A DNA stretch of 64,000 nucleotides, taken from positions 896,001-960,000 of the forward strand of contig CAWGZR010000005.1 in NCBI GenBank assembly GCA_963827165.1, in the 5' to 3' direction. Shown here piece by piece: positions 42,397 to 63,851 of this stretch. The stretch is from Candidatus Bathyarchaeota archaeon (GTDB lineage Archaea > Thermoproteota > Bathyarchaeia > Bathyarchaeales > Bathycorpusculaceae). Numbering within the stretch: the first letter of the stretch is position 1; every line of letters starts with the position of its first letter. Below the pieces are notes generated by a model. It was given only the letters and a program-made list of their open reading frames with translations, was not told the DNA's origin and made no database searches. The translations under genes were made by a program, and so were the position numbers.

Positions 42397-42703
42397 GCTA
42401 AACAAAGCCAATCAACAAATCCTTTCCTTTTTTTAGTCCCTAAAAATCATTTATACAGTTCTTATTTTCTTCAAGATTAAATCAATCTTGACTCTAATCC
42501 TAAAACAATTTTCTCCATTTGCAGGGGAAGTATTCGAACCCAAACCGGATAAAGACCGCCTCTATAGAATTTGAGCATCTCAAGGTACGATGAAGCGGAA
42601 GGCGGGAAATTAAGCGGGAAGTTTATGAAGTTCTTATCCGCTACTGAGTCATTATTAAGAAAATAACCTCGTATTCGGTTAAGGTGTCGAGATCCGCGGT
42701 TAA

Positions 42704-44284
42704 ATGGAGAGAGGAGTTGAAGTAATCATGCCTACGATAGTGGAAATGCTTGAAAAGAATGCCCGCAAATATCCCAATGATGTGGCATTGATTGAGCTAA
42801 CACCTAGCCAAAACTGCCGCAAACAAATTACTTGGAAAGAATTTGACAATGAAGCTAATCGTATTGCGAATTATCTGCTTCAAAAAGGTATTAAAAAAGA
42901 CGACAAAGTAATCCATTGGATGCGTAATTCTATCTCCTGGCTTGTAGCCTATTTCGGCATCATTAAAACCGGTGCCTGGGCAGTCCCTCTAAACTATCGT
43001 TTCAACGCAAAGGATTTCAAATACTGCTCTGAAATAGCAGAAGCCAAAACGATTATCTTCGAGGATTTTTTCCTGAAAACTGTTCAGGAAGTAAAACCTC
43101 CTACCATTATAGAGTACATCTATCTGGGACCAAATCTCCCGTCAGGAATGACCAGTTACGACGATATTCTAAAAGCAACCAATGCGGCTGCTCCCGAAAT
43201 CAAGCTGAAGCCCAATGATGAATGTGGCTTATATTTTACATCAGGTACTACGGGGGACCCCAAACCGGTTCTCTTAACACACAAAAACATGACATTCACA
43301 GCTAAAGTTGAGCAAATACATCATCACCAGACTCACGACGACAATTTTATTCTTCTGCCACCTCTCTATCATACTGGTGCCAAGATGCACTGGTTCGGCA
43401 GCCTCATAACCGGAGCTAAGTGCACTATTTTAACCGAAGTTAGTCCGAAAAACGTGTTGGATGCGGTCAGTAAGGAACGGGGAACCATCGTTTGGCTGCT
43501 TGTCCCATGGGTCCACGATATTTTGGTGGCTCTTGATACAGGTGCTCTAAAGCTGAACGAATACGACTTAACCTCTTGGCGTTTAATGCACATTGGTGCT
43601 CAACCGGTTCCTCCAGCTCTTGTGCAGCATTGGCTGAATTATTTCCCCAATATGGCTTACGACAATAATTATGGCCTCAGCGAATCCACTGGACCCGGTT
43701 CAGTGCACCTGGGATTGGAAAACGAGTTCCGGGCTGGCGCTGTCGGTAAAGTAGGATGTGGTTGGCATCTTAAGATCGTAACTGAGGATGACCGTGATAT
43801 TCCACCTGGGATGATTGGGGAACTGTGCGTCAAGGGTGACGGTGTGATGCGTGAATATTACAAAAATCCTGAATTAACAGCGAAAACTGTCGTTGAGGGC
43901 TGGCTGCATACTGGTGATATGGCACGCATAGATGAAGATGGCTATGTTTATCTGGTTGACCGCAAGAAAGACCTGATTATTGTGGGCGGTGAGAATATTT
44001 ATCCCATAGAGATTGAAGACGCCATTCATAACCATCCTAAAGTATATGACGTAGCCGTGATCGGCATCCCCGATGATCGTCTGGGAGAAATAATCGGTGC
44101 AGTCATCGACGTTAAACCTGGAGAAACCTTAACTGAAAAAGAAATCATGACACTTATTGAAGGTCTACTGCCCAAGTATAAGCGACCCCGCAAGATCATT
44201 TTTGATAAAGTGCCACGCAATCCCACCGGAAAGATCGAAAAAACCAAACTACGACTCAAACACGGAAAACAAAATCAAGGTTAA
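42704..44284 (+). CDS. Class I adenylate-forming enzyme (acyl-CoA synthetase)
   Basis: FTSGTTGDPK, YGLSE, WLHTGD, DRKKDLI..GGENIYP.EIE, NPTGKI. Confidence 0.9.
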   Translation: MERGVEVIMPTIVEMLEKNARKYPNDVALIELTPSQNCRKQITWKEFDNEANRIANYLLQKGIKKDDKVIHWMRNSISWLVAYFGIIKTGAWAVPLNYRFNAKDFKYCSEIAEAKTIIFEDFFLKTVQEVKPPTIIEYIYLGPNLPSGMTSYDDILKATNAAAPEIKLKPNDECGLYFTSGTTGDPKPVLLTHKNMTFTAKVEQIHHHQTHDDNFILLPPLYHTGAKMHWFGSLITGAKCTILTEVSPKNVLDAVSKERGTIVWLLVPWVHDILVALDTGALKLNEYDLTSWRLMHIGAQPVPPALVQHWLNYFPNMAYDNNYGLSESTGPGSVHLGLENEFRAGAVGKVGCGWHLKIVTEDDRDIPPGMIGELCVKGDGVMREYYKNPELTAKTVVEGWLHTGDMARIDEDGYVYLVDRKKDLIIVGGENIYPIEIEDAIHNHPKVYDVAVIGIPDDRLGEIIGAVIDVKPGETLTEKEIMTLIEGLLPKYKRPRKIIFDKVPRNPTGKIEKTKLRLKHGKQNQG

Positions 44285-44367
44285 CTCGCGCTCATACGTG
44301 ATTTTGCCACAAACAAGCGGTTCCACAAAAAGTAGCCGCCAAAGGACCTGATGCTTGGAAGTTATTC

Positions 44368-44392
44368 TGGTGGATTGGGCGATTTGAACCCC
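44368..44392 (-). repeat. tRNA 3'-end-like fragment (T-arm + acceptor strand + CCA)
   Basis: Minus strand reads GGGGTTCAAATCGCCCAATCCACCA; no 5' tRNA half adjacent. Confidence 0.6.
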
Positions 44393-44466
44393 AACCTTTT
44401 AGGAGATCGCAATGTGCAGATTATTTATATCAGCGATAAACTTTAGCATAAGTTAGGTGTCGATTT

Positions 44467-45417
44467 TTGGGTCTTTATTCTTTCAAGAGCATACTTGATC
44501 CTCTTGCTCCTTTTGATTTCTCACAGTCACTTGCCTACTTATCCGACTTTAGCCCCCTGAAAAATGAGCAAGTTGTCAGCAACAACTCGTTTTCGAAAGC
44601 GGTTGAAATCAAAGGAAAAACAATTGCGTTTGAAGTTACCGAATTAGGAAATGTCGAAAACCCAAAACTACAATTTACTGCCTACTCAGAAACAAGATTT
44701 ACCTCTGAAATTGAACAGTTGGTCGCTGACAGGATCAGCTTCTTTCTAAGCCTTCAAGATGACCTGAGAGAATTCTATAAAATCGCTGATCAGGATGAAT
44801 GTTTTAAACCTATAATAAAACGGTTTTACGGTCATAAGCAAGTAAAGTTTTTGACCCCTTTTGAGATAACTTGCTGGGCAATTCTGGGCCAAAGAATACC
44901 TATGGCTGTGGCACACAAAATGAAAGAGCGGCTAGTTGAAAAATTCGGCGGTCACATCAACATGAACGATAATGAATACCGAACGTTTCCTGAGCCAGCA
45001 ACAATAAACGAGGCTGAGTTTTCAAAACTGCTTGAAACGATTCATATCGAGAAAAAAGCTGAATGGATTTCAGGAGCAGCAAAAGCGTTTAACCATATGG
45101 ATGAACAATGGCTAAGAACCGCACCTTACGACGACGTTTATGTTTGGTTAACAAATATCAAAGGCATCGGCGAATGGTCAGCCAACTTCATTATGATAAG
45201 GGGATTGGGAAGAATGGAAAAACTCTCAAGTCTTGGCCCCGAGATTGCAACAAGTGCCTCAAAAATCTACACTGGAAATGATGAAGTAATGCCCGATCAA
45301 GAATTATGCGAGATAGCTGACAAATATGGTCAATGGAAAGGCTACTGGGCATATTACCTTAGAATCTATGCCGAATTTCTTTACGTCTTTGAGGTCGGCA
45401 AAAAACAACTTAATTGA
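44467..45417 (+). CDS. alkA: DNA-3-methyladenine glycosylase II (AlkA, HhH-GPD)
   Basis: PFE....AILGQ, FPEP, IKGIGEWSA..I.IRGLGR, W.GY.AYYL. Confidence 0.85.
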   Translation: MGLYSFKSILDPLAPFDFSQSLAYLSDFSPLKNEQVVSNNSFSKAVEIKGKTIAFEVTELGNVENPKLQFTAYSETRFTSEIEQLVADRISFFLSLQDDLREFYKIADQDECFKPIIKRFYGHKQVKFLTPFEITCWAILGQRIPMAVAHKMKERLVEKFGGHINMNDNEYRTFPEPATINEAEFSKLLETIHIEKKAEWISGAAKAFNHMDEQWLRTAPYDDVYVWLTNIKGIGEWSANFIMIRGLGRMEKLSSLGPEIATSASKIYTGNDEVMPDQELCEIADKYGQWKGYWAYYLRIYAEFLYVFEVGKKQLN

Positions 45418-45461
45418 ATAAATGCAAACTTTTCAGAAACAATGAGTTTGATGATTCGAGA

Positions 45462-45484
45462 TGTGGACTGGTGATTTGAACACG
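45462..45484 (-). repeat. Degenerate tRNA 3'-end-like fragment
   Basis: Minus strand CGTGTTCAAATCACCAGTCCACA. Confidence 0.5.
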
Positions 45485-45879
45485 TACCTGCTGGTAATTT
45501 CACCGTATTGCCTTTTTCTTTTTTTAGCCTAGAAATTGCTTCAATCAGAATACAAATGGGCGTAAGTTATTCTTTTATCTCATTGTCTGATCCTTTCGTG
45601 GCGCAACGTACGCGACTATTTTATTTAACAGCCTGCACTAGAGCATGTTGCCTGTGAAGAAAAAACACGTTAATCGGAGAAAGGATTGGTTAGTCCTTTT
45701 GATGATGACAGTTAACAAATTCTGAGGCACACTAACTGGGGAAATTCAGAGTTACGTATGCTGTGACTGCGTTCGCAGGTTTTCGTTATCAGCCATTTTT
45801 CTTTTGTTCTTGCCCTTTATAATTGAACTCGTAAGATATAATAGACAAGACTTGCATAACGTATAAAAACACAAATCTG

Positions 45880-46399
45880 AGCGGAGGTGGAGAACTTAGG
45901 TCAAGGCAAAGGTGGCAGACGCCGAGCAAAAATCCAGGCAATCCTTCGGCCGGCGGAAGTGCTAACAACCTTAAAGTAAATCAAGATTCGCCCAAAGGAT
46001 GTAAAGCTAAAAAAGTACATTATTCGAAAAAACTCGAACACCAAGGTGCCCAATAGGGCAGCCGAAGAAACAACATAAAACGGACGTGAACCGGACAAAC
46101 CCCGACTTACCGCTGCTAAGACTGTGGTCCCAGGTTTTCATGAAATCCAGAGAGGAATGATCCCTTTCCCTATAGAGAATTCACCCAAAAATCATTTTTT
46201 TCCCGCTTGTTTTTGTAACAGGCTTAGTAGGTTTCTGCTGCCGCGGATTCGAGCACATGTGAGGTGAGTCCTCCATGGTTTTGGAGTTCAGGAACAATTT
46301 CATCGTCGACCCCTTTATTCCCGATTAAGGCCTGAAAGAGGCAACTGAGCGGCGAAAGCCAAGTGCCCCACCGTCAAAAGCGCCTTTTTTAGCGTTTTT
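45880..46399 (+). ncRNA. Candidate large structured ncRNA
   Basis: No credible ORF; successive closed domains, GAAA-capped hairpins, TATA-like boxes upstream and a hairpin/oligo-T end (see findings). Confidence 0.4.
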
Positions 46400-46470
46400 A
46401 AGCAAAATTTCAGACGCAAATCTATGTTTGACAAAAATCTTATAAATAAAACGGGTAGGATATTAGCGGC

Positions 46471-46570
46471 ATTGGGCAAGGGGTACAAACGTGTCGGCAG
46501 TGTTTTGCTTAACTCAGTCCCTTGATTGCTATTAGTCCACTCCATATCTTGTCTGTGCCTTTTGCTCAAT
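46471..46570 (+). promoter_or_regulatory. Long 5'-leader hairpin of propeller paralog 3
   Basis: 46471-46487 pairs with 46554-46570 over 17 contiguous bp including 4 G-U; lies between TATA (46440) and ATG (46604). Confidence 0.6.
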
Positions 46571-46603
46571 AGAAAAATAAAACTGAATGGAGAAAAAAGA
46601 AAA

Positions 46604-49262
46604 ATGAAATTATCAAACAAAAACCAAAAAACTCTAACAATTGCTTTGATATTCACCCTCTCAATTTCCGCAGCATTCGCAATCATGCCAAGTACCAAAG
46701 CGCGCGACATTCAAGGAACAATCGCAACTTACGCGTATCTCCAAGCTGTCCCTCAGCAAGTAGGCATAGGTCAAAACGTCTTCCTCGTAATGTGGGTCGA
46801 CAAACCTCCAACCACTGCCTTCGGACCGTTAGGCGATCGATGGGTAGGCCTTACTGTCACTATAACGCAGCCAGACGGCAAACAAGTGGTCTTGGGGCCA
46901 TACCAGTCTGATGATGCAGGCGGCTACACCGCTACTCTATACTCCGACCGAACTAGGTAACTACACTGCAGTCTTTAACTTCCCTGGAGAGACACTGACA
47001 GGTGACCAGGGAAACCCAGGCGGCATGACGTTTTCCAATACCCAGGCAATCGGCGACGTTTTTGGTCCTTCTACTAGCGCAGCTGAGACCATCATGGTTA
47101 CGCAAACTCCCGCAAGCACTCTTCCAGAGAATCCGCTTCCAACTAGTTACTGGCAGAATCCAGTCGAAGCATTCAATCACAATTGGTATGCAATAGATGG
47201 CAACTGGCTCGGATTAGGAGATGTAGAATTCGCAAACACTGGCGACTATGCAGTCACCGGGAACTATAACCCATACACAACCGCACCAACCTCTGCACAC
47301 ATACTTTGGACTTCTCCCTTAATTCCAGGTTCACCAGGCGGTCAAATGGGCGGAGAATTCGGTGCCAGCGAGCAAGGCAACTACTACTCAGGATTCCAAT
47401 ATCAACCCAAGTTTTCACCGATAATCATCAACGGAATTCTCTACTATGATGCTGTCCCTACCTACTCAAGTGGTGGAAGCTACCAAGGATGGGTTGCCAG
47501 AGACCTAAGAACAGGGCAAATTCTTTGGACAAAGAACTACATGAACTACTTCGCACCAGGCTCCTATGACCTCCTGATGTGCGGACAAGTATACGTGTAT
47601 AAGTCACCGAACACTTACGGCGGACAAAGCTACCTATGGGCAACTAGAACAACAGGCGGAATAAACTACCTTGACCTATTTCGACGCGGCAACAGGAAAC
47701 TACATACTAAGTATTAACGGCTCAGGACAGCGTCAGGATCTTTCGGCGTTACAAACATCGAAGGGGACAACGGCATCCTGTTGCAGTACTACACAAGTGT
47801 ACAACGCCACTGGGGCTCAAACACTGAATTTCTGGAACTCTAGCGTTTGCCTAATAGGCGGAGGAGTTGATTTGGGATTCTCGACGCTAACACAAAACGA
47901 AGTAGTTCCCTACTCTAAAGGAGTAGTCTGGTCAATACCACTGCCAAACAGCTATCAAGGAGTTGCTTTCCCTGCAGGAGTTAGCTGGATACTTGACGAA
48001 GTCGGACACGCGGCAATAGATCCCAGACAATAACATAGCCATCTTAGGCGCAGGCGCTGGTGAGTATTCCATGTACTCATTTGCCACAGGCTGGGTTATG
48101 CGAGCAGCCTATAACCTGAATACTGGAGCGCAACTTTGGATGAAGAACCAAACCGAAACCCCCTATTCAACAGTAATGGCCATACCAGGAGCTAACGATG
48201 GAGTCTACGTTGAGTATACCAAAGAAACGACAACATTTTCAGGTTACAGCACAACTACAGGACAGCAAGTGTGGGGTCCAACAACACCCTTCCAGAATCC
48301 TTTAGGCTACTACGACCAAACAAGTGGAGTATGCGCAGGCGGAGCTTTATACGCATGGACATTCGGTGGTTGGATCTACAAATATAACATGACCACTGGC
48401 AGCCTCATCTGGAGCTTCACTGATGGAACCGCTGGAGAAAACACACCCTACGGCGTCAATCCCTTCTGGATCATCGGCGACTACGAAGCCACACTTGCAG
48501 GCGGCATGCTCTTTGCAGAATCTGGACACTGCTACGGTCCGCCATTATTTAGCGGAGCACGGCTTTACGCAATCAACGCAACAACTGGAAAACTAGTTTG
48601 GAGCATAATCAACTTCGACACTGGTTCATGCCCAGCAGTAGTCGACGGGCAACTCTTGGCTTTCAACGCATACGACAACCAAATATACTCATACGGCGTA
48701 GGCCCCAGCAAAACAACAATTAGCGCACCTTCCGTCGGAGCAACAACATCCACTCCAGTAACCCTTACTGGAAGAGTCACCGACATCTCTTCAGGTTCGC
48801 AGCAGACAGCAGTCGCAGCAAACTTCCCCAATGGATTGCCATGTAGTCTCAGACGCTAGCATGGAACAGTTTATGGAAGCCGTTTATGAGCAAGAACCAA
48901 TGCCGAGCAACACAACTGGAGTTCCAGTTACTTTCACAGTCTTAGACAGCAATAATAACCTCCGATCAATAGGCTCGACAACCACAAACGCTCTAGGCGA
49001 CTACTCATTCACGTGGAAACCTGACATTGCAGGCAACTACACCATATACGCAACCTTTGCCGGCACACCATCATACTATGGATCATCTGCCTCCACAGGA
49101 TTCTATGCAAGCTCACCAGCAGCAACAACCGCACCAACATCAACACCTCTAACTGGCTTAGCCTCAAACAACACAGTCATGTACGGAATCGTAGCGGTAA
49201 TCATCGTGATAATCATTATCGGCGCTGCAATCATGTTGATGCTCAGCAGAAAACGACCATAA
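46604..49262 (+). CDS. PQQ-like beta-propeller surface protein (paralog 3), at least 4 frameshifts
   Basis: Five ORF pieces collinear with paralog 1; FPNGLPC, FMEAVYEQ, TM + RKRP. Confidence 0.8.
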
Positions 49263-49442
49263 ACTTAAGAAGCAAAAACAAACCAACCCTTTTTTTCTTT
49301 TTTAATGACTTAAACCAGAATTCAAACAATCAAATTTAACCTTTTTCATCCGGCTTTAGGTGCTTGATCTCTCGTTATAATTCTGTCTTTGCAAAAAAAA
49401 AACTGAACAGGAATCACCTGCTCTTAGCAATAATGTTCACGT

Positions 49443-49460
49443 GAAGGGGATTTGAAACCT
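49443..49460 (-). repeat. Degenerate tRNA T-arm-like fragment
   Basis: Minus strand AGGTTTCAAATCCCCTTC. Confidence 0.4.
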
Positions 49461-49604
49461 TGGGCTGTCCGAGTGACCCCGTGAGTCAATCCGTGTTTTC
49501 AAAAAATGTTAATACCTAATAGTGGTTACTTGATTGCATTCAACTGGTCCATCGCATTTGTGATGCACCGGTGCCTACAGAGAAACGGAGAGTTTCTTTA
49601 TGAT

Positions 49605-49736
49605 TTAACTTTTGCAGTCAACTAAATGGGCTGTGCCGTCTGGACAAAAGACTTTTTCGCCTACGCAAACACGTGTGAAACGTCGTTTGCATTCAGAGAG
49701 TTGGTTTTCGCATCCGTCACAATCACGAGATAGCAT
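49605..49736 (-). CDS. 43-aa Cys-rich microprotein
   Basis: MLSRDCDGCENQLSECKRRFTRVCVGEKVFCPDGTAHLVDCKS; GGGGTGA SD upstream. Confidence 0.6.
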   Translation of the reverse strand: MLSRDCDGCENQLSECKRRFTRVCVGEKVFCPDGTAHLVDCKS

Positions 49737-49982
49737 CCTGTCACCCCACATTAGTATGAATTCGTAAGTAATGTTATATCTGAGAGATAAAGATTGCCCT
49801 ACGCCGGATTCATTCCGGAAAAACAAAGAGCATTGACGATCTTGGAATCGATGAGCTCAAGATCCAAATGAGGCATCAAATGCAAAATTAGAATGCCATC
49901 AAGAACTCGACAATAATTGAATAGCAAACTTTAAAACGCTCATCTAAACAAAGCAAACCCAATTCGAGGAAAATCGCGAGAT

Positions 49983-50210
49983 TGTAGTATAAGTGGCTTG
50001 TGCTGACGGTAACTACAATCGGCGTCCTCTGGCTGGGATAGACGCGAGAATCGTAATCATAGGGTTACCGTAGGTTATTCACGCCCTTGTCGCCGATGCA
50101 GAGCAAGTAATCTGGATAAGCCAAGCATACATGCTGGGCACAATAACGATTCTGCTGTTGGTGGGGCACTTCGCAGACCTCTTCCGAAGCAAACGCGTCT
50201 ATTCAAGAAC
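49983..50210 (+). pseudogene. 5' fragment of a DHA2 MFS transporter
   Basis: Frame-shifting translation YKWLVLTVTTIGVL/AGIDARIVIIGLP*VIHAL..WISQAYMLG..GHFADLFRSKRVY parallels the N-terminus of the 3907 MFS; contains an in-frame stop and is truncated. Confidence 0.7.
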
Positions 50211-54990: not shown

Positions 54991-55008
54991 AAAAGGGAGA
55001 AAAAGAAC

Positions 55009-55779: not shown

Positions 55780-56388
55780 TTGGCGTTGGCATTGCTGTTA
55801 ATAACAGCATGCGCCACAATCATCGGTGGATTCATAGTGACAGCACACGCAAATAACGCAAACTCAACCACTTCTTCAACAACAAGCTCTACAAACGCCA
55901 TCGCATCAGAAATCAATGCCACTAACCCCCAACAACTGGGAATGAATGGCATGAACAATGGTAATCAGGGATTTGGCGGACCAATGGGACAGAACGGAAA
56001 CATGGGGCAGTCAATGAGCGGACCAATGGGAACAGGCGATAACATGAATGGATTCATGGGCAGCATGAGTGGCTTCGAAGTCAGCTCAGCCTACACAGCT
56101 AACGTAACAGCTATATTGGACAGCGACACAAACGTTGCGAAATTAATTTCGGAAGGCTATAACGTAACATCAATCAACCCCATAATACAAAATGTCATCA
56201 ACGGCGACGGAACAATCACAATGCAGGCAACCACAGCGATAGTCACATTGCAAGATGGCACCTCTGGATACGCAACAGCGCACGTAGACCTTACCTCTGG
56301 AACAGTCACCAAAATAGTCATCATCACCAGAACTGAAATAGACAATACAACCACCAGCACAACCAATTCAACAAACACCACCAGCTAG
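55780..56388 (+). CDS. Secreted protein with Gly/Met/Asn-rich linker
   Basis: Signal peptide, GM-rich tract, C-terminal domain EVSS.Y..NV..IL..D; start uncertain. Confidence 0.7.
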   Translation: MALALLLITACATIIGGFIVTAHANNANSTTSSTTSSTNAIASEINATNPQQLGMNGMNNGNQGFGGPMGQNGNMGQSMSGPMGTGDNMNGFMGSMSGFEVSSAYTANVTAILDSDTNVAKLISEGYNVTSINPIIQNVINGDGTITMQATTAIVTLQDGTSGYATAHVDLTSGTVTKIVIITRTEIDNTTTSTTNSTNTTS

Positions 56389-56404
56389 ACGTGAAACTCA
56401 ATTG

Positions 56405-56436
56405 GAAGGGATAGTTCGACTACAACTATCTCCTTC
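56405..56436 (+). terminator. Hairpin downstream of 56388
   Basis: gaagggatagtt / aactatctccttc, 12 bp with one bulge. Confidence 0.45.
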
Positions 56437-56478
56437 TCAACCATTTCTGCCTGATGACAAAAACGCTAACTAAGAAGT

Positions 56479-56587
56479 GGGGGGCTGACAAGACTCCAGA
56501 TAAATTACGATTAACGCAATCGTGATGGCGCTTTTGCATTTGCGCTCTTTTCTCCTTAAAATTTTTTGGAGTCTCAGCAAACCCTCT
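56479..56587. repeat. Inverted-repeat module of the dispersed repeat (MITE-like)
   Basis: ggggctgacaagactccaga ... tttggagtctcagcaaaccc. Confidence 0.6.
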
Positions 56588-56846
56588 ACCACCTTACTTT
56601 TTCTTTGGAACAATAGCGGTTATCGTTCAAGCAAAAAATATTCCAAAAAAGGAAAAACCCTTCTGTGATTAAAAATCAGGCGTTCTTTTTTAGGGTATTC
56701 TATCACAATACTTCTGGCTTTTCAATCAAGTTCTTATGGAGCTTGCCTTAGAATAGTTGATACTCTTTCTATACTATTCTTAGAACAGCACGTTAAACAG
56801 CAAGGCAAATATATTCAACCCTTCCTTGAATTGTTGAGGTTATAGC

Positions 56847-57008
56847 ATGAAAGTGAAAGCTCTTCCTGACGGACCTTATTTAGTTGAATCTGAGGCAAAA
56901 GGGAAAGTCGCTCTATGTCGTTGTGGACTATCAAAAAACAAGCCATACTGTGATGGCGCACATGTTAAAGGCAATTTTAAAGCAGAGAAAACTGAAATCG
57001 ACCTCTAG
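56847..57008 (+). CDS. CDGSH iron-sulfur domain microprotein, 53 aa (absent from ORF track)
   Basis: MKVKALPDGPYLV...LCRCGLSKNKPYCDGAH; GAGGT SD. Confidence 0.9.
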   Translation: MKVKALPDGPYLVESEAKGKVALCRCGLSKNKPYCDGAHVKGNFKAEKTEIDL

Positions 57009-57346
57009 AAACAGAAGGAAAAGTACCTCCCAAGATTTTCTTTTTTTAGAAGAATTTCTAAATTTTTCGATGCATCGTCTAAAGGGCGATTTTGGCAAAG
57101 TTCTTAAAACGGGGAAAAAGCAAATATTGTTAAGACAACCCAAAATTATTTGGATCTGTGCATCGTAAAGCCTGTAGAGGAGATATCACCCGAATTCCCT
57201 CTTTTTTCTGAATTCTTGCGCTTAAAAATTATCGAAAATAAGAGTTCGCTATGCAAAAGTTTTTGTGCCAATCTGATGCTCGAAATCTTGCGCAGGTTTC
57301 CCGCCCTTTGTTTTAGTATCTTTGCCGCTAAATCCACCTGGCATTT

Positions 57347-58318
57347 TCAGAATGTTGTGATATATTGAAGCGGGGTTGGCCATGCGTTTGGCATGGGCCT
57401 AAGATTCGTCTCGATTCCTTTTATGTTTGGAATTTTCATTATCTGATCATTAATCTCATAGATGCTCTTGCAATCTTTAACAAGACCCACAAAGGACAAG
57501 TCGTGGGCTCCACTCATCTTCAGAATGTAGCTAACCCCCGGGATCACACTCAACTTGTCAGCCACATCATTTGCTTCATTGGGATCACAGAGAAGCAGAT
57601 TCGCGCTAAAAATTCCCTGGTAACCGAGTTTCACAAAGTCTATTTGGATTGAGATCTTTATGAGGTTCTTGCTCCTAAGCTCTTCATATTTTCTGGCTAC
57701 AGTTGCTGTAGAGGAACCGACCTCTCGGGCAATTTTGCTAAAAGCAAGTCGACCGTCTTTGGCGAGCAAATCAATGATCTTCACGTCGGTCTCATTAAAA
57801 TCCGTTGAAACGTCGGTTTGGTCACCTGTTATAACCAATTGGTTGGATTCCAGGATAGTTGTTGTAATACCGAGCGTGTTTTCAGGAATATTTCTGACGT
57901 CAGTCCAAATGTAAGTTCGGATATTGTTTATTCGATTTTTTTTGCAGACTTCCTGCTTGACTCGTTCCAAGTCGCTAAGACCTTTCAACGTGAAAATGAC
58001 CTGGATGTTAAAGGGTGAGTTGTACAAAATTCTGACATTTCGAATGTCCGGAATACTTCGAAGCCGGTCATACGTTTCCGCTAAGTATTGCGAATCGACG
58101 TTTATCATGGTTAAAGATACGCCAGAGTAACCGAACCTTTTGAAGTTGTATTGAACAGTGGCACCTACGATGATGCCTGCTTTTCTCAGTTCTTCAAACC
58201 TGGATCTTATCACATTTTCATTCAATTGGCACTTTTGTGCAATGGCTCGAAAACTCTTTCTTCCATCTTTTAGCAGTTCCTGAAGGATTTTAATGTCGAC
58301 AGCGTCAGGCTCTTTCAT
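57347..58318 (-). CDS. Tandem (double) Lrp/AsnC regulator
   Basis: Two HTH-RAM modules; divergent from propeller paralog 4. Confidence 0.9.
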   Translation of the reverse strand: MKEPDAVDIKILQELLKDGRKSFRAIAQKCQLNENVIRSRFEELRKAGIIVGATVQYNFKRFGYSGVSLTMINVDSQYLAETYDRLRSIPDIRNVRILYNSPFNIQVIFTLKGLSDLERVKQEVCKKNRINNIRTYIWTDVRNIPENTLGITTTILESNQLVITGDQTDVSTDFNETDVKIIDLLAKDGRLAFSKIAREVGSSTATVARKYEELRSKNLIKISIQIDFVKLGYQGIFSANLLLCDPNEANDVADKLSVIPGVSYILKMSGAHDLSFVGLVKDCKSIYEINDQIMKIPNIKGIETNLRPMPNAWPTPLQYITTF

Positions 58319-58521
58319 GTCATTAATTCCAAGAGGTGTCTCGTCGTTGTGCTAAATAAACTGAACTGTTTTGTTAGTTTAGAATCATTATCGGAAACTT
58401 TGTTGTGCTGATACGATTATTGAACTTTAAGGTGATATTAATCGTTTATTTTAGTTATTTCTCTTTTTGTGAAAAAACTTATAAATGATCAACAATAATT
58501 GCTAGAGCCAGGGAGAAAAAT

Positions 58522-61509
58522 ATGAAAATACCAAAAAATAAAATGGCGTCGCTAATTATCGCTTTGATTTTAACAATTATCCTAGGAGGTTCATCGTTAC
58601 TTGTACCTAGTGCATATGCGCACAACCCAGGGTGGAATATTCCAACATACGCTTACATCAGCATCTCACCAAATCCAGACGGTGTTGGCCAATCCGTAAT
58701 AGTTTACATGTGGCTCGACTGCGTTTACGGAGCTGCCGGCGGCACCGCTGCTGCAGTTGGGACCAACGGTTACACAGCAAGCGCGGCATTGTTGTCAAAC
58801 GACTATAGATTCCACGACTATCAACTGACCATCACTGCTCCCGATAGCACAAAAACAAAAAACACTTTTTCGATCATCTCAGACCCAACTTCTGATCAAT
58901 CCACAACTTTTACTCCCACACAGGCTGGTACATACACTTTCAATTTCACCTTTTCCGGTCAAGTTTACGGAGCAAACGGCGATGGCTACTCTGCTTCGTC
59001 ATTAGTCAACGATACTTATCTCCCAAGTTCAGCATCAGCGACTCTTACAGTGCAACAATCTCCAATCCCTTCGCTAGTAACCAACGAACCGCTTCCAACC
59101 GCTTTCTGGGAAACCCCAATTTACGGTGAAAACTCAAACTGGTACACGATCTCGTCAAACTGGCTTGGCCCAGGTTCACCAACTCTGTCAGGCTACACGG
59201 TTAATTCTGGCTCCTATCAACTTTACCACCCGGACGCAACGGGTCCTTTGACTTCACACATCATGTGGACAAGCCAACTTCAATTCGGGGGAGTCGTCGG
59301 CGGAAACATGTACCCTGCTGGGGGCTCAGATCCCAACGGAGCCGGCATAGGCGTATCCTATTTTGAAGGCTCTTCATACGAACCCAGATTCGTCAACCCC
59401 ATAATAATTGACGGATATCTCTTCTACACTGAACCAGTATCCTTCTCAGGTGGATCTAGTGGACCAACAGTCTGCGTTAACCTTGAAACAGACCAACAAC
59501 TCTGGTCGTCAACCGCAGTGCCTCAATTATCGTTCGCTTACATCTACAATCTGTGGGATCCAGATCAACACGGAGTTTACCCGCCAATCCTTGTCGCTAC
59601 AAACCCTGAAAACGGTAACTGGCAACTCTATGATGCTTACACTGGTGATTCACTTTTCAACGTGACAGGTGTCCCCTCAGGCACCGTAGTCGCAGGCCCT
59701 AATGGCGAACAATTGAGATACGTAATAGCCAACGATGGCACGGCAACAAATCCGCAATGGTACTTATCCGAATGGAACTCCTCTAAGCTATGGCAATACG
59801 ACATTAACCCATATACCGGAACCGGAAGCTTATCTCCAGCCGTCATAAATGAAACAAACGGTTACCTAATCGGAGGCGCCGTTGGCAGCGCAACTAGCCC
59901 TGGAGCTCTTCCTCCACCAAACACAGGCGTTGATAGCGCCGTCAGTCCAAGTGGTAAAACAGTAAATGTGCCAGCTGGTTCAACCATACTTGTAAACGCA
60001 AACATCCCCATCCATGACACTGCGGATGCGCCAGGAACGACAACGCCTATCTACGAGTTTAACCAGGATTCATTAACTACATACGACTGGAACATCTCCA
60101 TTCCGTGGCTAAACACTATGCCTGTGCAACCCGCCTTCAATAGCGTTACAGGAATCTACACACCCGCGGCCCCAGGAACCAATCCAGTATCTGTGGTTGC
60201 AGCTGATTATGGAGATTTAATGCTTTGCAGAAACGGCTCCTTACCAACGGGCTTTGCGGCAGATGACACCGGCAGTTTCGATCAGCCATACACAATGTTC
60301 GCTGTCAACTTGAACTCTTCCGTCGGCACGGTAGGATCAATATTGTGGATGAAGACCTACAACCCACCTCTTGGCAACATCACTCTCCAATTACCAATCG
60401 TCGACTTCCAAACTCGCGTTTTCGTCTTCCAATACTACGAGACCATGCAATGGGTAGGCTTCAGCTTAACCAATGGCAATCCGATATGGGGTCCCACGCC
60501 AAGCGAAGTGGCTTTCAACTACTACGACTGGAGCGGCTACAACCCTGGCGTAATGGCTTACGGTAACCTTTACAGTGGTGGATTCGGAGGAGTAACTTAC
60601 TGCTTTAACGACAAGACTGGAGCGCTGGAATGGACTTGGGGCAACGGACTGGCGAGCTCAGACAACAGTACTTACGCCGGCGTGAACACGCCTTACGGTG
60701 ACTATCCAACATTCATTCAATCGGTTTCAAATGGAATTGTATACTTAGCTACTGATGAGCACACCATTCCCAATCCGCTTTTCGAGGGCGCCACATACGA
60801 TGCCATAAATGCGACAACAGGCAAAATGATATGGCAACTTTCAGGCTATCCTAGTGAATGGGCGTACAGTGGCAGTCAATGGGCAACCGCAGACGGCTAC
60901 TTAGCTTGCATGAACGGCTACAACAACCAAATCTACAGCGTAGGCCAAGGACCAAGCAAAACCACAGTTTCGGCACCTGACCTCGGAGTGACAACAGCCA
61001 CGCCAGTAACGATAAAGGGCACAGTAATGGATATTTCCGCCGGAACAACACAAAGTCAACAAGCAGCTGACTTTCCAAATGGAGTCCCAGTCGCATCGGA
61101 CAAGAGCATGACAGGATGGATGGGCTACGTTTACCAGCAGCAACCAGAACCAGCAAACTTCACAGGTGTTCAAGTTACGCTATCGGTCTTAGACTCGAAT
61201 GGCAACCACAGGACTATCGGTACTACCACGACCAACGCTCAGGGTGAATATGGCTTCGCATGGACTCCTGATATCCCAGGCAACTACACTGTGTACGCTA
61301 GCTTTGCAGGCACAAACGCATACTTCGGATCCTCAGCTTCAACTTTCTTCTATGCTAGCTCACCACCATCAACATCTGCCCCGACAGTATCACCAGTCAG
61401 CGACTTAGCCTCAAACACAACAGTCATGTACGCAGTCGTCGCAATGATCATTGTCTTCATCGTAGGCATCACCGTAGTCGCATTGCTCGTGACGAGAAAA
61501 CATCCATAA
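58522..61509 (+). CDS. PQQ-like beta-propeller surface protein (paralog 4)
   Basis: PNPDGVGQSV, YFEGSSY.PRF.NPII, FPNGVPVASD, TM + RKHP. Confidence 0.85.
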   Translation: MKIPKNKMASLIIALILTIILGGSSLLVPSAYAHNPGWNIPTYAYISISPNPDGVGQSVIVYMWLDCVYGAAGGTAAAVGTNGYTASAALLSNDYRFHDYQLTITAPDSTKTKNTFSIISDPTSDQSTTFTPTQAGTYTFNFTFSGQVYGANGDGYSASSLVNDTYLPSSASATLTVQQSPIPSLVTNEPLPTAFWETPIYGENSNWYTISSNWLGPGSPTLSGYTVNSGSYQLYHPDATGPLTSHIMWTSQLQFGGVVGGNMYPAGGSDPNGAGIGVSYFEGSSYEPRFVNPIIIDGYLFYTEPVSFSGGSSGPTVCVNLETDQQLWSSTAVPQLSFAYIYNLWDPDQHGVYPPILVATNPENGNWQLYDAYTGDSLFNVTGVPSGTVVAGPNGEQLRYVIANDGTATNPQWYLSEWNSSKLWQYDINPYTGTGSLSPAVINETNGYLIGGAVGSATSPGALPPPNTGVDSAVSPSGKTVNVPAGSTILVNANIPIHDTADAPGTTTPIYEFNQDSLTTYDWNISIPWLNTMPVQPAFNSVTGIYTPAAPGTNPVSVVAADYGDLMLCRNGSLPTGFAADDTGSFDQPYTMFAVNLNSSVGTVGSILWMKTYNPPLGNITLQLPIVDFQTRVFVFQYYETMQWVGFSLTNGNPIWGPTPSEVAFNYYDWSGYNPGVMAYGNLYSGGFGGVTYCFNDKTGALEWTWGNGLASSDNSTYAGVNTPYGDYPTFIQSVSNGIVYLATDEHTIPNPLFEGATYDAINATTGKMIWQLSGYPSEWAYSGSQWATADGYLACMNGYNNQIYSVGQGPSKTTVSAPDLGVTTATPVTIKGTVMDISAGTTQSQQAADFPNGVPVASDKSMTGWMGYVYQQQPEPANFTGVQVTLSVLDSNGNHRTIGTTTTNAQGEYGFAWTPDIPGNYTVYASFAGTNAYFGSSASTFFYASSPPSTSAPTVSPVSDLASNTTVMYAVVAMIIVFIVGITVVALLVTRKHP

Positions 61510-61576
61510 AACGACAAAACAACAAAACAAATTACCTTTTTTCCTTTTTTTAAAATTTTTAGAAAATACTGACGTC

Positions 61577-61696
61577 AGGGGCTGAGAAGGCTCGGGTTAC
61601 ACTCAAAAATAGCTGCAATTGAAGAGTTTGTATTTTTCTTTTTCTCCTAAAGAAAAAACTTTTCTTCCTTAGTTTCCGGAGCCTCAGCAAACCCCT
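61577..61696. repeat. Inverted-repeat module of the dispersed repeat (MITE-like)
   Basis: aggggctgagaaggctcggg ... tccggagcctcagcaaacccct; internal gctgcaattgaa shared with the 63412-63630 copy. Confidence 0.7.
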
Positions 61697-61755
61697 AATG
61701 CTCTAAGATTTTACTATTTTTTTTTTAAAAAAACATGCCTTAGTATAGCAAGTTT

Positions 61756-61778
61756 TGACGCCGGGAGGGATTCGAACC
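61756..61778 (-). repeat. tRNA 3'-end-like fragment
   Basis: Minus strand GGTTCGAATCCCTCCCGGCGTCA. Confidence 0.6.
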
Positions 61779-61830
61779 AAAAACTGGATTAAATCTTTAT
61801 GAAATTGAACTTCAACAAATTCAAGATCAA

Positions 61831-61895
61831 GCGGTCTGAGGGGATTTGAACCCCCTGCAAAAATGGAGAAATCATCCGGGCCTTCCCATTTTTCT
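61831..61895 (-). repeat. tRNA 3'-end-like fragment with repeat body
   Basis: Minus strand GGGGGTTCAAATCCCCTCAGACCGC; followed on + by aaatggagaaatcatccg as at 52244. Confidence 0.65.
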
Positions 61896-62047
61896 TTAAA
61901 TTATGCGAAAAAATATGCAAAATGAGGCGGATGCATGAGTAGGACTTGAATTCATCTGGTTTGTAAATATCCTATAGATAATTGCTTTTGAATTTAGGCC
62001 CAGTTGATTTATATTTCATGATGGTGCATGAAACATCTGAAATTCAA

Positions 62048-62203
62048 ATGTCAAAAAAGAATCAGCTGGAAAAACTTTGCCCTGAATGCGAAGAAGATAT
62101 GAATCCTGTTTTTGACAAAAACAAGGTACTCGTTTGTTGGGAATGCACAGAGTGTGGTACAATTGTTTTAGCAACAAAAGAAGTCAAACAAGAAAAGCCT
62201 TAG
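62048..62203 (+). CDS. 51-aa zinc-ribbon microprotein
   Basis: CPECEEDM...WECTECG. Confidence 0.65.
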   Translation: MSKKNQLEKLCPECEEDMNPVFDKNKVLVCWECTECGTIVLATKEVKQEKP

Positions 62204-62703
62204 CCCAGCACATTAGGACCAAACTCGCAGGAACAAAAGCTAAACCTGGTTCAACTTCAAACCAAGCATTGGAATTTATAGCTAAATCCGTTCTCCCCAT
62301 CTGCGATAAGCTTTCCCGATTTGACGCTAGGCGTTAATTTGATCGGTTAAAAAAGGCATAGAGCAAATGTATGCAAGTTTTATCTTATTGCGTCTCCATT
62401 TATGCAGCACTGTCTGGTTGAGTTTTTGATAATGATTTGTGCCTTTTGTATAACCGATTTGAGCTATCTCTTTTTTGGTTTAACCCCTGTCTAATTTAGG
62501 TAAAGGTAAACTTGAACCCAGGCGAAAGTGGAGATGACATCCAATATATCCATTTTTCTTTTGGCTCTTTCAGTTTCCGCTTTCTATGATTTTTTTCCGC
62601 TTTTTGTCGAATAATGCTTCTGGGTTGTTGCTTCTGTAAGTACACCTGCGATAGATTCTCAACTAAAGAAATTACTTGAGAACCTTGCGAATGTTTACTT
62701 GTT

Positions 62704-63099
62704 TTAGAATGCATCGACTATATTTTCCATAACTTGCTTTTCGGCTGTCCTGCTTTCTCCTCTGTTTTTTATGAGCATTTCCAGAGACTTTGCAGTTTTT
62801 AAGTAAAGTTTTTTTTCTGCTATAAAGTCGTTTGGCACTCCGCCAACATACCAAGAATGGAAATGATAGCACTGATAGAAGAGCTGATTGTAGACTTCTC
62901 CCCTTTTTGCAGCTGCCGACTTTAGTGCGTGGACGTTATCATTTTTCAGGTTTGAATCCTGCGATATATCAGTTTTCACACATTCCCAGAGCAGTTCCCC
63001 AGCTTCAGCCAAATCATCACTTATGCCATTCTCCAAGTATTTACAGTATTCTTCCTTGCTTTGACCCAACAACTTCTTCAAAAAAATGTTATCGACCAT
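62704..63099 (-). CDS. PaREP1/HEPN-like protein
   Basis: YLE.G..DL..AGE.LW..V and FH..Y patterns resemble PaREP1. Confidence 0.5.
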   Translation of the reverse strand: MVDNIFLKKLLGQSKEEYCKYLENGISDDLAEAGELLWECVKTDISQDSNLKNDNVHALKSAAAKRGEVYNQLFYQCYHFHSWYVGGVPNDFIAEKKLYLKTAKSLEMLIKNRGESRTAEKQVMENIVDAF

Positions 63100-63411
63100 T
63101 TTACTTCGTGAACTGAACAAATGGAGAAGGTAAAAACCTTTCCTCCTCAAAAAAAAATTTAGCTCATCAATACCCGCTAATTTGAATATTTGCTCTCTTG
63201 TGACTCTATTTTTGCTGCTTTTGGTTTATTCACCAAAGTGCACCTACAATTCCTTCGAAGACTATAATTAGAACGGCGCATTCAACTTCAACGATGCACT
63301 GCATTTCGCGGGCTATTACATCGCTTATTCCAACGCAAACAGCTAGATGGTCTCCCTCTTAAAAAAAAAGAATGCATCTCAATGTAGCGATAATGCCGGG
63401 GTTTATTTGAA

Positions 63412-63630
63412 CCGACTGGAGAGGATTTGAACCCAAGAGGAAGTGAAGATATCACCCGCCAATCTTCCTTTTTCGTTTGTTTTATCCCATGGAAACAAAC
63501 GAAGAAGAAAAGAATTGGGCTGAAAAGGTTCTGGTTAAACGCGAGATTGCTGCAATTGAAGGATTTGCATTTTCTTTTTTCTGTTTAAAGAAATTTTCTT
63601 TCTTAATTTCCTGATCCTAAGCAGATTCCT
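63412..63630 (-). repeat. ~220 bp dispersed repeat, second full-length copy
   Basis: Minus strand GGGTTCAAATCCTCTCCAGTCGG head; collinear with 52214-52413. Confidence 0.75.
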
Positions 63631-63851
63631 AATTTTCTTAAGGCAGCAGGGTTTTAATTTTTTGCGGACGCTGCACGCTTAATTTAGTTCCAAGCTCCAA
63701 TATACTCGAACCGAGTGATTCTTATGAAAAAGATGCATTGGCATTAGTGGCTTTGTTAACAATCGAGTCCGCGTTATCGAACCAGATTTGAAGCCGCGTC
63801 AATGGAAGAGCTTATAGGGGAAATGATGGTACTGGCATATGGTGATTCCAT

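Follow-up and report, generated by a model that had tools for sequence, protein, structure and literature searches.

A surface-protein island in Candidatus Bathyarchaeota archaeon (genome G000) was probably built behind a tRNA-Ala gene by serial tRNA-targeted integration, followed by decay and some duplication. The window analysed here comprises 64,000 nt of contig CAWGZR010000005.1 (C5; positions 896,001-960,000), and its minus strand carries a series of tRNA 3' fragments that are best read as attR-type junctions, in which an element-side arm would meet the 3' part of a tRNA. The junction anatomy is established, as are the source tRNA and a tyrosine integrase beside it on a second contig of the genome, C10.

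A preliminary description had located nine tRNA 3' fragments in the window, and we found all nine where it had placed them, all on the minus strand. ARAGORN detected 41 tRNAs in the genome, and each site was aligned to their parts from the T-arm to the 3' end, with 2000 random window 31-mers as background (mean score 7.7, 99th percentile 12, maximum 16). Clearly above chance were the sites at 61756 (score 20, tRNA-Ser(CGA)), 52214 (18), 63412 (17) and 61831 (16), the last three matching tRNA-Ala(TGC) best, and 44368 (16, Ala). Two more lay beyond the 99th percentile, 45462 (14, Ala-TGC) and 42521 (14, Ser-CGA), and those at 49443 (13) and 21446 (12) were marginal. Most listed sites thus exceed chance and two or three do not; the proposed tRNA origin holds, with Ala the source for most and, as a correction, tRNA-Ser for two. 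The exact T-arm word GGTTCRAATC occurs five times in the window (44381, 52228, 61769, 61843 and 63424), always on the minus strand and only between 44 and 63.5 kb, against 0.29 expected, and none of 100 shuffles reached five.

Because ARAGORN detected no tRNA genes and Rfam no families at gathering score in the window, it contains no 5' tRNA halves, in agreement with the preliminary description. The sites are indeed intergenic, all outside ORFs of at least 80 aa, and lie 45-290 nt past plus-strand genes. The CCA(G/A)TC strand that had been noted in several fragments is explained by tRNA-Ala(TGC), whose 3' acceptor strand reads CCAGTC, although its 5' acceptor strand is GGGCTGG, with G3:U70, and not the predicted GGACTGG. 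The fragment at 44368 and its flank match the tRNA-Ala(TGC) locus of another Bathyarchaeota MAG (L052) to 13 nt beyond the discriminator. This flank belongs to a tRNA-Ala locus of another type and the fragment at 61756 is Ser-like, so the fragments do not all share one origin, which counts in favour of serial integration.

Most fragments are preceded by a conserved arm of about 50 nt, the preface, in which an A-run leads to a GAYATC palindrome that stands 15 nt ahead of the T-loop. The spacer was 15 nt in 31 of the 33 matches that had both exact motifs, out of 78 profile matches in total. Profile R1 gave six matches in the window at E < 1e-4, all on the minus strand, four of which belonged to the training set of the model. 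Three units were absent from the earlier list: one with a degenerate T-arm (62491-62571), one that consists of a preface alone (57172-57216) and one that has decayed (46158-46213). The junctions and fragments in the window are as follows.

63410-63486, minus strand: preface and tRNA-Ala-like T-arm/acceptor fragment, a putative attR-type junction (R1 57.6 bits, E 3.7e-17, in training set; Ala-TGC 17)
62491-62571, minus strand: preface and degenerate T-arm, paralogue of C10:411512 with a derived T-arm common to both (R1 52.1 bits)
61828-61905, minus strand: preface and tRNA-Ala-like fragment (R1 51.4 bits; Ala-TGC 16)
61756-61778, minus strand: tRNA-Ser(CGA)-like 3' fragment without preface (score 20 against tRNA-Ser(CGA) at C5:452278; exact GGTTCGAATC)
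57172-57216, minus strand: preface alone, without T-arm, past the AsnC-type regulator gene (R1 26.6 bits, E 1.9e-7; outside training set)
52213-52289, minus strand: preface and tRNA-Ala-like fragment (R1 61.5 bits; Ala-TGC 18)
49439-49460, minus strand: weak T-arm-like site, membership uncertain (R1 E 0.46; score 13)
46158-46213, minus strand: decayed preface and decayed T-arm (R1 20.6 bits, E 1.4e-5; outside training set)
45462-45525, minus strand: decayed preface and tRNA-Ala-like fragment, CCAGTCCAC (Ala-TGC 14; R1 weak, E 1)
44368-44440, minus strand: tRNA-Ala fragment ending in CCA, with flank CCAGAATAACT and decayed preface (match to the L052 tRNA-Ala(TGC) and its downstream flank)
42521-42541, minus strand: weak tRNA-Ser-like fragment, membership uncertain (Ser-CGA 14, random 99th percentile 12; no R1 match)

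A profile search of the genome placed prefaces with fragments in two co-oriented runs, C10:407-423 kb (plus strand) and C5:948-962 kb (minus strand), in keeping with the uniform orientation described earlier. R1 scores drop distally, from 51-68 bits in seven of the eight proximal junctions to 20.6, 5.0, 7.8 and none in the last four, a gradient in which most high scorers served as training sequences. Conservation of the arm with fixed spacing across the order is established. A short preface adjoins an integrase or integrase remnant in L086, L100 and G003 (tRNA-Cys), and we infer that the integrase binds it. Fragments mirror the host's own tRNA variant, with CCGGTCCA in G003, CCAGTCCA in G000 and CCCCACC in L086. 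In the closed genome G003, a matching tRNA lies within 19 kb upstream for only about 5-6 of the 16 listed matches, which counts against serial integration.

The source is tRNA-Ala(TGC) at C10:392660-392734, whose 3' end reads CCCCCCCAGTCCA, and the tyrosine integrase lies 56 nt from it (C10:392791-394020; PF00589, E 2e-24). Two intact elements were found, both outside the window, whose fragments duplicate the 3' end of either tRNA-Ala(TGC) or tRNA-Leu(TAG). In the first, the tRNA-Ala(TGC) gene at C10:392660 and a copy at C10:407451 share the block GGGTTCAAATCCCCCCCAGTCCACTTCAA; the 14.7 kb between them include the integrase, next to the tRNA, and the distal copy carries a preface. In the second, tRNA-Leu(TAG) at C5:314726 and its copy at C5:333122, again with a preface, enclose 18 kb and a frameshifted integrase. 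The integrase family, found in Bathyarchaeia, combines an N-terminal zinc-ribbon DUF7838 with a Phage_integrase catalytic domain, and a convergent tRNA gene lies within 400 nt at 59 of 70 usable loci; among loci with at least 60% identity, 12 of 13 are at tRNA-Ala(TGC). Only the tRNA-proximal module of the island has an integrase; a tblastn search of the remainder, with E values up to 10 allowed, returned no integrase remnant, only chance matches of 13-23 residues, which counts against serial integration. No conjugation genes were seen.

On this basis, we propose that such integrases would act on circular elements and insert them in tRNA genes, within the 3' half, with an identity block from the T-stem/T-loop to a few bases beyond the tRNA 3' end and a crossover that may fall within the T-loop. 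Every insertion would regenerate the tRNA. The T-arm and acceptor strand would be duplicated at the far end of the element, behind the preface, which is the arm that the element itself contributes. Further rounds of insertion at the regenerated tRNA-Ala(TGC) would displace older modules outward, so that all scars would point in the same direction. The older modules would have lost their integrases and, in some cases, been additionally duplicated inside the array; they now hold one to three genes, namely PQQ-propeller surface proteins with TrmB/AsnC regulators, the ligase, the glycosylase and small ORFs.

C10 ends in an overlap with the window's contig, C10:423260-423515 matching C5:962578-962323 at 99.6% identity; the basis of this join is the 256-bp overlap and synteny, with no spanning read. 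From tRNA-Ala, the array runs through the 14.7-kb integrase-bearing element and three more junctions to the end of C10, and in the best reading would continue, reversed, on C5 to about window 30-42 kb, which makes at least 13 junctions in about 65 kb. In three relatives (G001, G003 and G016), the core genes upstream of tRNA-Ala(TGC) are the same as at C10:377.8-391.9 kb, downstream lie preface-fragment arrays of 2.4, 9.5 and 8.7 kb, respectively, with different content, and beyond these follow orthologues of the genes at window 542-29652. Variable content between conserved flanks is thereby established, and the window therefore appears to hold the distal section of an accretion island of roughly 65 kb. 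The source tRNA, the adjoining integrase, the contig overlap and the flanks in relatives together place the integrase at the edge of the island and beyond the window, as had been predicted. The earlier proposal of repeated tandem integration gains from the tRNA, the integrase and the relatives, with the amendment that some junctions are paralogues and not independent events: the unit at window 62491 is 86% identical over 65 nt to C10:411554-411618, and shares its derived T-arm with C10:411512.

The cargo genes of the window, and a conserved non-coding element (Xpart), are listed below.

39688-42072, plus strand: propeller surface gene, beyond the most distal fragment that can still be recognised (PQQ_2 E 1.1e-10)
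42704-44284, plus strand: AMP-binding acyl-CoA ligase (PF00501 E 3.3e-73)
44467-45417, plus strand: HhH-GPD glycosylase-like gene, single-gene module of ~1.07 kb (PF00730 E 8.4e-7)
46526-49262, plus strand: PQQ-like propeller surface gene, divided among several ORFs in the window (PQQ_2 and Ig matches)
50621-51961, plus strand: 446-aa ORF without Pfam family
52308-52412, plus strand: Xpart copy directly adjoining a preface (cargo-free module)
57347-58318, minus strand: double-HTH AsnC/Lrp-type regulator, divergent from a propeller gene (PF13404 E 7.4e-21)
58522-61509, plus strand: secreted propeller/Ig protein of 995 aa, from a family of about 24 paralogue loci
61579-61699, plus strand: Xpart, conserved ~125-nt non-coding element after a propeller gene, with 12-bp terminal stem
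61982-62203, plus strand: small CxxC...CxxC zinc-ribbon ORF, single-gene module of ~0.58 kb
62704-63150, minus strand: 148-aa ORF, 0.84-kb module
63517-63633, plus strand: Xpart copy directly adjoining a preface, partly decayed

Single bases are missing from the propeller gene at 46526-49262 in contigs of X1, X2 and X3. Xpart has 12 copies in the genome; each pair of its stem is kept in 9-14 of 14 sequences, with a double change at one pair. In relatives, homologues of the ligase occupy other, unlinked contexts, those of the glycosylase are found in relatives that mostly differ from those with the ligase, and the zinc-ribbon ORF has 80-86% nucleotide identity in many genus genomes, away from prefaces in all eight relatives examined. 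None of these homologues in relatives lies beside a preface, which counts against serial integration, and entry of the three genes as mobile modules is therefore hypothetical; each module of the window may have entered by integration.

Propeller genes and Xpart are repeated families, which counts against serial integration and invites the reading that the array is mostly a paralogue expansion of the surface-protein family: unequal crossing-over and rearrangement would have multiplied one or a few old scars together with the adjacent propeller genes, regulators and Xpart. About 24 propeller loci in the genome, 9-10 of them within the island, many matches of 70-86% identity between the C10 and C5 parts, and the degenerate T-arm and flank common to C10:411512 and window 62491 point in this direction, as do the identical 256-bp block in two different upstream contexts, with identity starting exactly at the preface edge, and two G003 copies with the same downstream flank at sites 200 kb apart. 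We nonetheless consider it unlikely, since one array mixes Ala and Ser fragments with a different tRNA-Ala flank type, the cargo includes the non-paralogous ligase, glycosylase and zinc-ribbon gene, the same flanks enclose unrelated genes in the arrays of relatives, and the fragments of each host match its own tRNA variant. A selected regulatory site or small RNA whose tRNA likeness is secondary, such as a TrmB/AsnC operator, a terminator for convergent genes or a tRNA-like RNA, would suit a palindromic preface that is kept across the order, stands directly past a regulator gene at four junctions (C10:411512, C10:419214, C5:962578 and window 57172) and has an A-run that is a T-run on the gene strand. 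This is highly improbable given that neither a 5' acceptor strand nor a consensus structure is present, many copies have no nearby regulator, integrase-bearing elements are bracketed by exact repeat pairs, and preface subtypes follow tRNA type, three Arg-CCT-linked copies (G000, G002) forming one subtype.

It is likewise unlikely that the island is a cassette platform, in which a short preface and T-arm on integrase-less modules would play the role of attC, the tRNA gene that of attI, and a single trans-acting integrase would insert, excise and shuffle modules of one to three genes. Such a platform would account for the small modules of 0.58-1.07 kb with one gene apiece, for a preface nearly identical between families of the order at fixed spacing, for up to 18 R1 matches per genome, and for the single intact integrase of its family found in this genome. 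It would also fit the orientation of the large cargo genes counted in array ORF maps (seven in the window, four on C10 and one at C5:963.6-966.2 kb): all 12 are antiparallel to the fragments, with the 3' end toward the upstream fragment, as is the integrase in the intact elements. However, contigs of four runs, which cannot show rare forms, contained no joint at any fragment and no excision or shuffling junction, the same module was never found at two places, and cargo homologues elsewhere lack prefaces. A conserved second arm 3' of the fragments was not found, which, like the lack of joints in the contigs, counts against serial integration as well, RNAalifold gave no consensus hairpin in the preface, and integrase loss is equally well explained by decay of full elements. 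The earlier suggestion of independently mobile cassettes, one per block, is not borne out by the contigs or by the search for a second arm.

Integrons have a tyrosine recombinase at the edge, an insertion point and short gene modules that end in a recombination-site repeat, with genes mostly in one orientation. The island resembles them in all of these respects, but its repeat is a tRNA 3' part plus arm rather than a folded attC with a hairpin, its insertion point is a tRNA gene, and cassette excision is only hypothetical; an integron in the strict sense is unsupported. Williams reportedly described, in 2002, a T-loop sublocation class of tRNA integration sites in which the symmetric T-arm can act as core site. 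The identity block here likewise runs from the T-stem/T-loop to the tRNA 3' end or slightly past, the crossover position being deduced from where identity starts.

Work on SSV-type 'suicidal' integrases of hyperthermophilic archaea describes tRNA-targeted integration that leaves tRNA 3' fragments (PMC7253208), as in the island; unlike in that system, the integrase gene next to the tRNA is intact and unsplit, the preface is non-coding and no integrase pieces flank the fragments. Archaeal tandem arrays at one tRNA gene, and integrated elements without integrase, are known from two papers (PMC6563490, PMC8371274), the latter a 2021 review whose text makes no mention of Bathyarchaeota. The island shares with tandem tyrosine-recombinase arrays the re-use of a regenerated site and co-oriented att repeats behind a tRNA gene, but extends over about 65 kb with at least 13 junctions and an integrase only in the first element, modules that are often single-gene, and an element-side arm that is an order-wide conserved motif. 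In bacterial accretion, as outlined in PMC5704250, integration is followed by decay to an att-flanked integrase-less element (CIME, cis-mobilizable element) and by new integration alongside. The anatomy of the island matches this three-step scheme; unlike in bacterial CIMEs, the host is an archaeon, conjugation genes were not seen, cis-mobilisation of the decayed modules is hypothetical and one surface-protein family dominates the cargo. The kind of process is thus already known, from archaeal tandem arrays and from bacterial accretion with integrase-less CIMEs, and its new details here are a conserved arm motif and modules with a single gene.

The preliminary description had listed nine tRNA 3'-end fragments in the window, and all nine do lie on the minus strand where it placed them, but two are at or near chance. 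Each was scored by alignment to the T-arm-to-3'-end parts of the 41 tRNA genes that ARAGORN calls in this genome, for which the 99th percentile of random 31-mers is 12. Named by start coordinate, the fragments are:

Fragment 61756, minus strand: score 20, tRNA-Ser(CGA); clearly tRNA-derived
Fragment 52214, minus strand: score 18, tRNA-Ala(TGC); clearly tRNA-derived
Fragment 63412, minus strand: score 17, tRNA-Ala(TGC); clearly tRNA-derived
Fragment 61831, minus strand: score 16, tRNA-Ala(TGC); clearly tRNA-derived
Fragment 44368, minus strand: score 16, tRNA-Ala; clearly tRNA-derived
Fragments 45462 and 42521, minus strand: score 14 each; weaker
Fragments 49443 and 21446, minus strand: scores 13 and 12; at or near chance

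The window copies are diverged, scoring 14-18 against tRNA-Ala(TGC) versus 12 for the random 99th percentile, and their common CCAGTC corresponds to the 3' acceptor strand of this tRNA. The T-arm word GGTTCRAATC occurs five times in the window, at 44.4-63.4 kb and always on the minus strand, against 0.29 expected, and none of 100 shuffles reached five. The absence of 5' tRNA halves also held: ARAGORN calls no tRNA gene in the window, and no Rfam family reaches its gathering score there.

A similar stretch of about 50 nt, overlooked in the first reading, precedes each of fragments 52214, 61831 and 63412, and a genome-wide scan found it on other contigs as well, again ahead of orphan tRNA 3' ends. 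This preface, as we call it, starts with an A-run, followed by a palindrome centred on GAYATC, and a profile search puts its copies in the genome at about 17-20. R1, a covariance model without structure built on preface plus fragment, has six matches in the window at E <1e-4, all on the minus strand. Two of the six were outside its training set, 57172-57216 (preface only) and 46158-46213 (decayed), and decayed prefaces are readable ahead of 45462 and 44368 too. The spacer from GAYATC to the T-loop is nearly fixed, at 15 nt in 31 and 14 nt in two of the 33 copies with an exact GAYATC and T-loop start, these being drawn from 78 profile matches in this genome and the fetched loci. R1 matches were present in 38 of the 41 genomes searched, this one included. 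Within the genus, 22 of the other 24 genomes had them, as did most sampled families of the order, with a maximum of 18 matches in one genome; the core of the preface is nearly identical between different families.

We considered whether the preface is a structured RNA and rejected this, since RNAalifold predicted no pairs on 12 aligned prefaces with their fragments and a helix scan showed only the T-arm hairpin and the short palindrome. A split or permuted tRNA, or one with odd introns, was likewise rejected on the lack of a 5' half by ARAGORN, of an Rfam hit and of a pairing leader; the preface holds no strand complementary to the 3' acceptor strand.

What kind of junction these sequences form can be read from two intact elements elsewhere in the genome. 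A tRNA-Ala(TGC) gene lies at 392660-392734 of contig C10, and a convergent 409-aa ORF (C10:392791-394020) lies 56 nt away, carrying DUF7838 and Phage_integrase domains (PF00589, E 2e-24; only these two Pfam domains were scored). Beyond this integrase are a primase-like gene, a wHTH gene and a protein with a tail-fibre-chaperone-like domain, and at C10:407378-407480 a long-form preface is followed by a copy of the tRNA-Ala, reaching from the T-stem to six bases past the 3' end (exact repeat block, C10:392712 and 407451). On C5, the contig that contains the window, tRNA-Leu(TAG) at 314726 and its copy at 333122 similarly enclose 18 kb, in which an integrase belonging to the same family is frameshifted (exact repeat block, C5:314789 and 333122). 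In both cases the 3' part of the tRNA is thus directly repeated at the far end of the inserted DNA, and we therefore conclude that a preface with its fragment forms the distal junction of an integrated element, in which the preface is element DNA and the fragment the common core. A source tRNA with an adjoining integrase, which had been proposed as a check, is accordingly found in tRNA-Ala(TGC) on C10; as had been stated, no integrase lies in the window, and a tyrosine recombinase adjoins this intact tRNA instead.

Related integrases are common in Bathyarchaeia metagenome-assembled genomes (MAGs). We kept 80 such loci, 70 of which include the whole 3' end of the integrase with 200 nt or more of sequence after it, and in 59 of these 70 a convergent tRNA gene was called within 400 nt by ARAGORN in a per-locus linear run. 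Among the 13 loci with integrases of at least 60% identity, tRNA-Ala(TGC) is the site in 12. The short form of the preface, as in the window, adjoins an integrase or integrase remnant at loci L086 and L100 and at tRNA-Cys in the relative G003. Only about 5-6 of the 16 matches listed for G003 have a matching tRNA within 19 kb upstream; for the others, rearrangement, larger elements, tRNAs that ARAGORN missed or a different mode of spread are possible explanations. In the source genome, the ARAGORN set of just 41 tRNA genes lacks several anticodon families, and at least two tRNA-like sequences were not called (C1:54200 and C11:762, both Arg-CCT-like), so that counts of tRNA-paired junctions are lower bounds. 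At locus L140 (G003, C1:1532214-1532450) a 3'-end copy of tRNA-Lys(TTT), a tRNA whose gene is located 7 kb upstream, is preceded at a distance of about 200 nt by an Ala-type preface-fragment; here a junction of one tRNA type sits at the end of an element that integrated at a different tRNA. A scan of IMG/VR with the pattern GCGGGTGAYATCTCCAC returned 10 matches, which we take as chance because they lack A-run and T-arm context and have neither an integrase match nor a tRNA close by; IMG/VR thus holds no true match to the preface pattern, and a free viral attP was rejected as far as that database extends.

The preface-fragments form two co-oriented runs, one on the plus strand at C10:407-423 kb, directly following the tRNA-Ala element, and one at C5:948-962 kb, on the minus strand, to which the part in the window belongs. 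The final 256 bases of C10 (423260-423515) match C5:962578-962323 at 99.6% identity; the match sets in precisely with the first base of a preface A-run, upstream of which the two sequences are unrelated. In three relatives, G001, G003 (a single-contig genome) and G016, the genes upstream of tRNA-Ala(TGC) are orthologous to C10:377.8-391.9 kb, preface-fragment arrays of 2.4, 9.5 and 8.7 kb, respectively, with other content lie downstream of it, and beyond these are orthologues of C5:896.5-925.6 kb (window 542-29652). The relatives therefore carry variable content between conserved flanks. From the overlap and these flanks, we read the end of C10 as one that would continue, in reverse, into C5, and the island as extending from C10:392735 to about 30-42 kb of the window, a length of roughly 65 kb that holds at least 13 junctions. 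A stretch of 8 kb, C5:962.6-970.5 kb, contains a TrmB gene, a further propeller gene and a decayed tRNA-Ala copy of 64 nt, and is either a strain variant or a second copy context. That tRNA-Ala(TGC) copy (C5:967449-967511, minus strand, 87.5% identity) runs from the D-arm to the 3' end, has no 5' acceptor strand and is followed by a Ser-like fragment at C5:967377-967399. Other contigs also end in tRNA-linked repeats, the end of C1 matching the start of C11 at a tRNA-Arg(CCT)-like sequence and the end of C7 matching C8 near tRNA-Ser(GCT), and preface-fragment arrays seem to break the assembly.

Modules within the arrays share a common anatomy. In tRNA orientation, a typical module consists of an upstream fragment, a main gene on the opposite strand, sometimes a regulator, a preface and the next fragment. 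The 3' end of the main gene lies 45-290 nt from the upstream fragment, the same placement as that of the integrase in intact elements, and some modules have a divergent TrmB or AsnC regulator between main gene and preface. By ORF maps, all 12 large cargo genes in this genome's array are in module orientation, and in G016 the same arrangement directly follows the tRNA-Ala. Cargo in the window includes an AMP-binding ligase, an HhH-GPD protein, two propeller genes, a 446-aa ORF with no Pfam family, a zinc-ribbon ORF and a 148-aa ORF; three modules measure just 0.58-1.07 kb with a single gene each. For the ligase and glycosylase, homologues in relatives match by the genes alone, neighbours differ in every genome examined, and the 1.5-kb flanks hold no T-arm word; gene order in the genus is too scrambled, so these neighbours neither support nor refute entry at the motifs. 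The zinc-ribbon ORF (window 61982-62203, plus strand, CPEC...CTEC), alone between two junctions here, has 80-86% nucleotide identity in many genomes of the genus, often beside a ~162-aa ORF to which tblastn found no match in this genome; a preface was near the gene in none of eight relatives. In the propeller gene at window 46593-49393, one or two bases are missing at 8 listed places from contigs of the comparison runs X1, X2 and X3, which also differ at ~59 positions, so that the split of the gene into 5-6 ORFs may represent an assembly error or strain variant rather than a true pseudogene.

The preliminary description is largely right in what it observed, and repeated tandem integration, which it put forward, is well supported by this anatomy and by the comparison with relatives. 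Several observations point to independent events. Fragment 44368 matches the tRNA-Ala and flank of another locus type (L052) and not this genome's own, 61756 and perhaps 42521 are Ser-like, and fragments track each host's tRNA variant; three prefaces linked to tRNA-Arg(CCT), in this genome and the relative G002, are of one subtype, and distal junctions are the most decayed. Other observations point to copying: a derived T-arm is common to C10:411512 and window 62491, the propeller genes make up about 24 paralogue loci, and two copies in G003 have a flank in common. Integration and copying thus both seem to have acted.

Xpart is a non-coding repeat of ~125 nt with 12 copies in the genome, mostly just after propeller genes, and also present in G016:

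Window 52308-52412, Xpart copy
Window 61579-61699, Xpart copy
Window 63517-63633, Xpart copy
Nine further copies on C4, C5, C10, C12 and C13

Its ends form a 12-bp stem (GCTGA..GGCTC.GG / CC.GAGCC..TCAGC) with a double change in one pair only. An RNA, a terminator and a MITE-like repeat are candidates; a peptide gene was rejected since indels between copies break the frame. Among the 80 integrase loci, Xpart matches occur in four and propeller matches in five, and in those checked (L042 and L044) they are off the array position. Two other non-coding sequences were observed. The ~80 nt at window 42572-42650 (plus strand), also at C10:88820-88899 (minus strand), have 73-83% identity in most genus genomes searched, with C/D-box-like words (ATGAAG twice, terminal CTGA) and no Rfam hit there; this is probably a C/D box sRNA gene. 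At window 45649-45729 (plus strand), in the module between fragments 45462 and 46158, lies a weak Rfam match of C/D-box snoRNA type below gathering score (snoU61, 26.9 bits, E 0.037).

Among known systems, the island resembles accretion islands with cis-mobilizable elements (CIMEs), in which att-flanked modules without integration genes stand in tandem with an integrase-bearing element; here, too, the junctions are co-oriented, and no integrase homology was detected in the island beyond the first element (C10:394.1-423.5 kb and C5:926-970.5 kb). In SSV-type elements, by contrast, integration splits the integrase ORF, with the att core inside it. The 409-aa integrase is intact beside the tRNA, the preface is non-coding and upstream of a divergent operon, and no integrase pieces lie near fragments in the same searched island, so a split integrase was rejected as the origin of the preface. 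Integrons have folded attC-type sites at cassette ends, unlike the prefaces, in which RNAalifold found no pairs. We nevertheless considered an archaeal counterpart of the integron in Bathyarchaeia, in which integrase-less modules of 1-3 genes, each with a conserved arm-plus-T-arm site, would be inserted at a tRNA gene, excised and reshuffled by just one DUF7838 tyrosine integrase acting in trans, diversifying PQQ-propeller surface proteins; we regard this as unlikely. In the covered parts of window 44001-64000, contigs of runs X1, X2, X3 and X5, a form of data that drops rare forms, had no joint at any fragment. The joints seen, 52355 to 61614 (X2, side 39) and 56567 to 61678 (X5), look like paralogue or repeat effects, with 52355, 61614 and 61678 falling within Xpart copies.

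Passages in the archaeal literature describe arrays from re-use of one integration site and integrase-less integrated elements (PMC6563490, PMC8371274), and for bacteria a passage of PMC5704250 describes accretion in which decayed elements remain flanked by att sites. For genomes of the Bathy-6 subgroup, section 13 of PMC11697101 reports numerous PQQ-domain genes and unexplained genomic islands, and gives no tRNA-integration mechanism. Neither the preface motif nor arrays of tRNA fragments are described for Bathyarchaeia in the portions of the literature covered; supplementary text S6 and the tables of PMC11697101, which deal with further genomic regions, may bear on whether such islands had been noted earlier. 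Because several integrase relatives come from Bathy-6 MAGs, our guess is that the source genome belongs to this subgroup.

Bathyarchaeia are abundant, uncultured archaea of soil and sediment. Our analysis ties one of their genomic islands to a concrete mechanism, with a source tRNA, an integrase family and a conserved arm motif at fixed spacing, and raises the question of whether its integrase-less single-gene modules are still mobile. The arm motif provides a marker for such islands and for misassembly-prone contig ends across the order, as well as a defined DNA substrate for an archaeal integrase.
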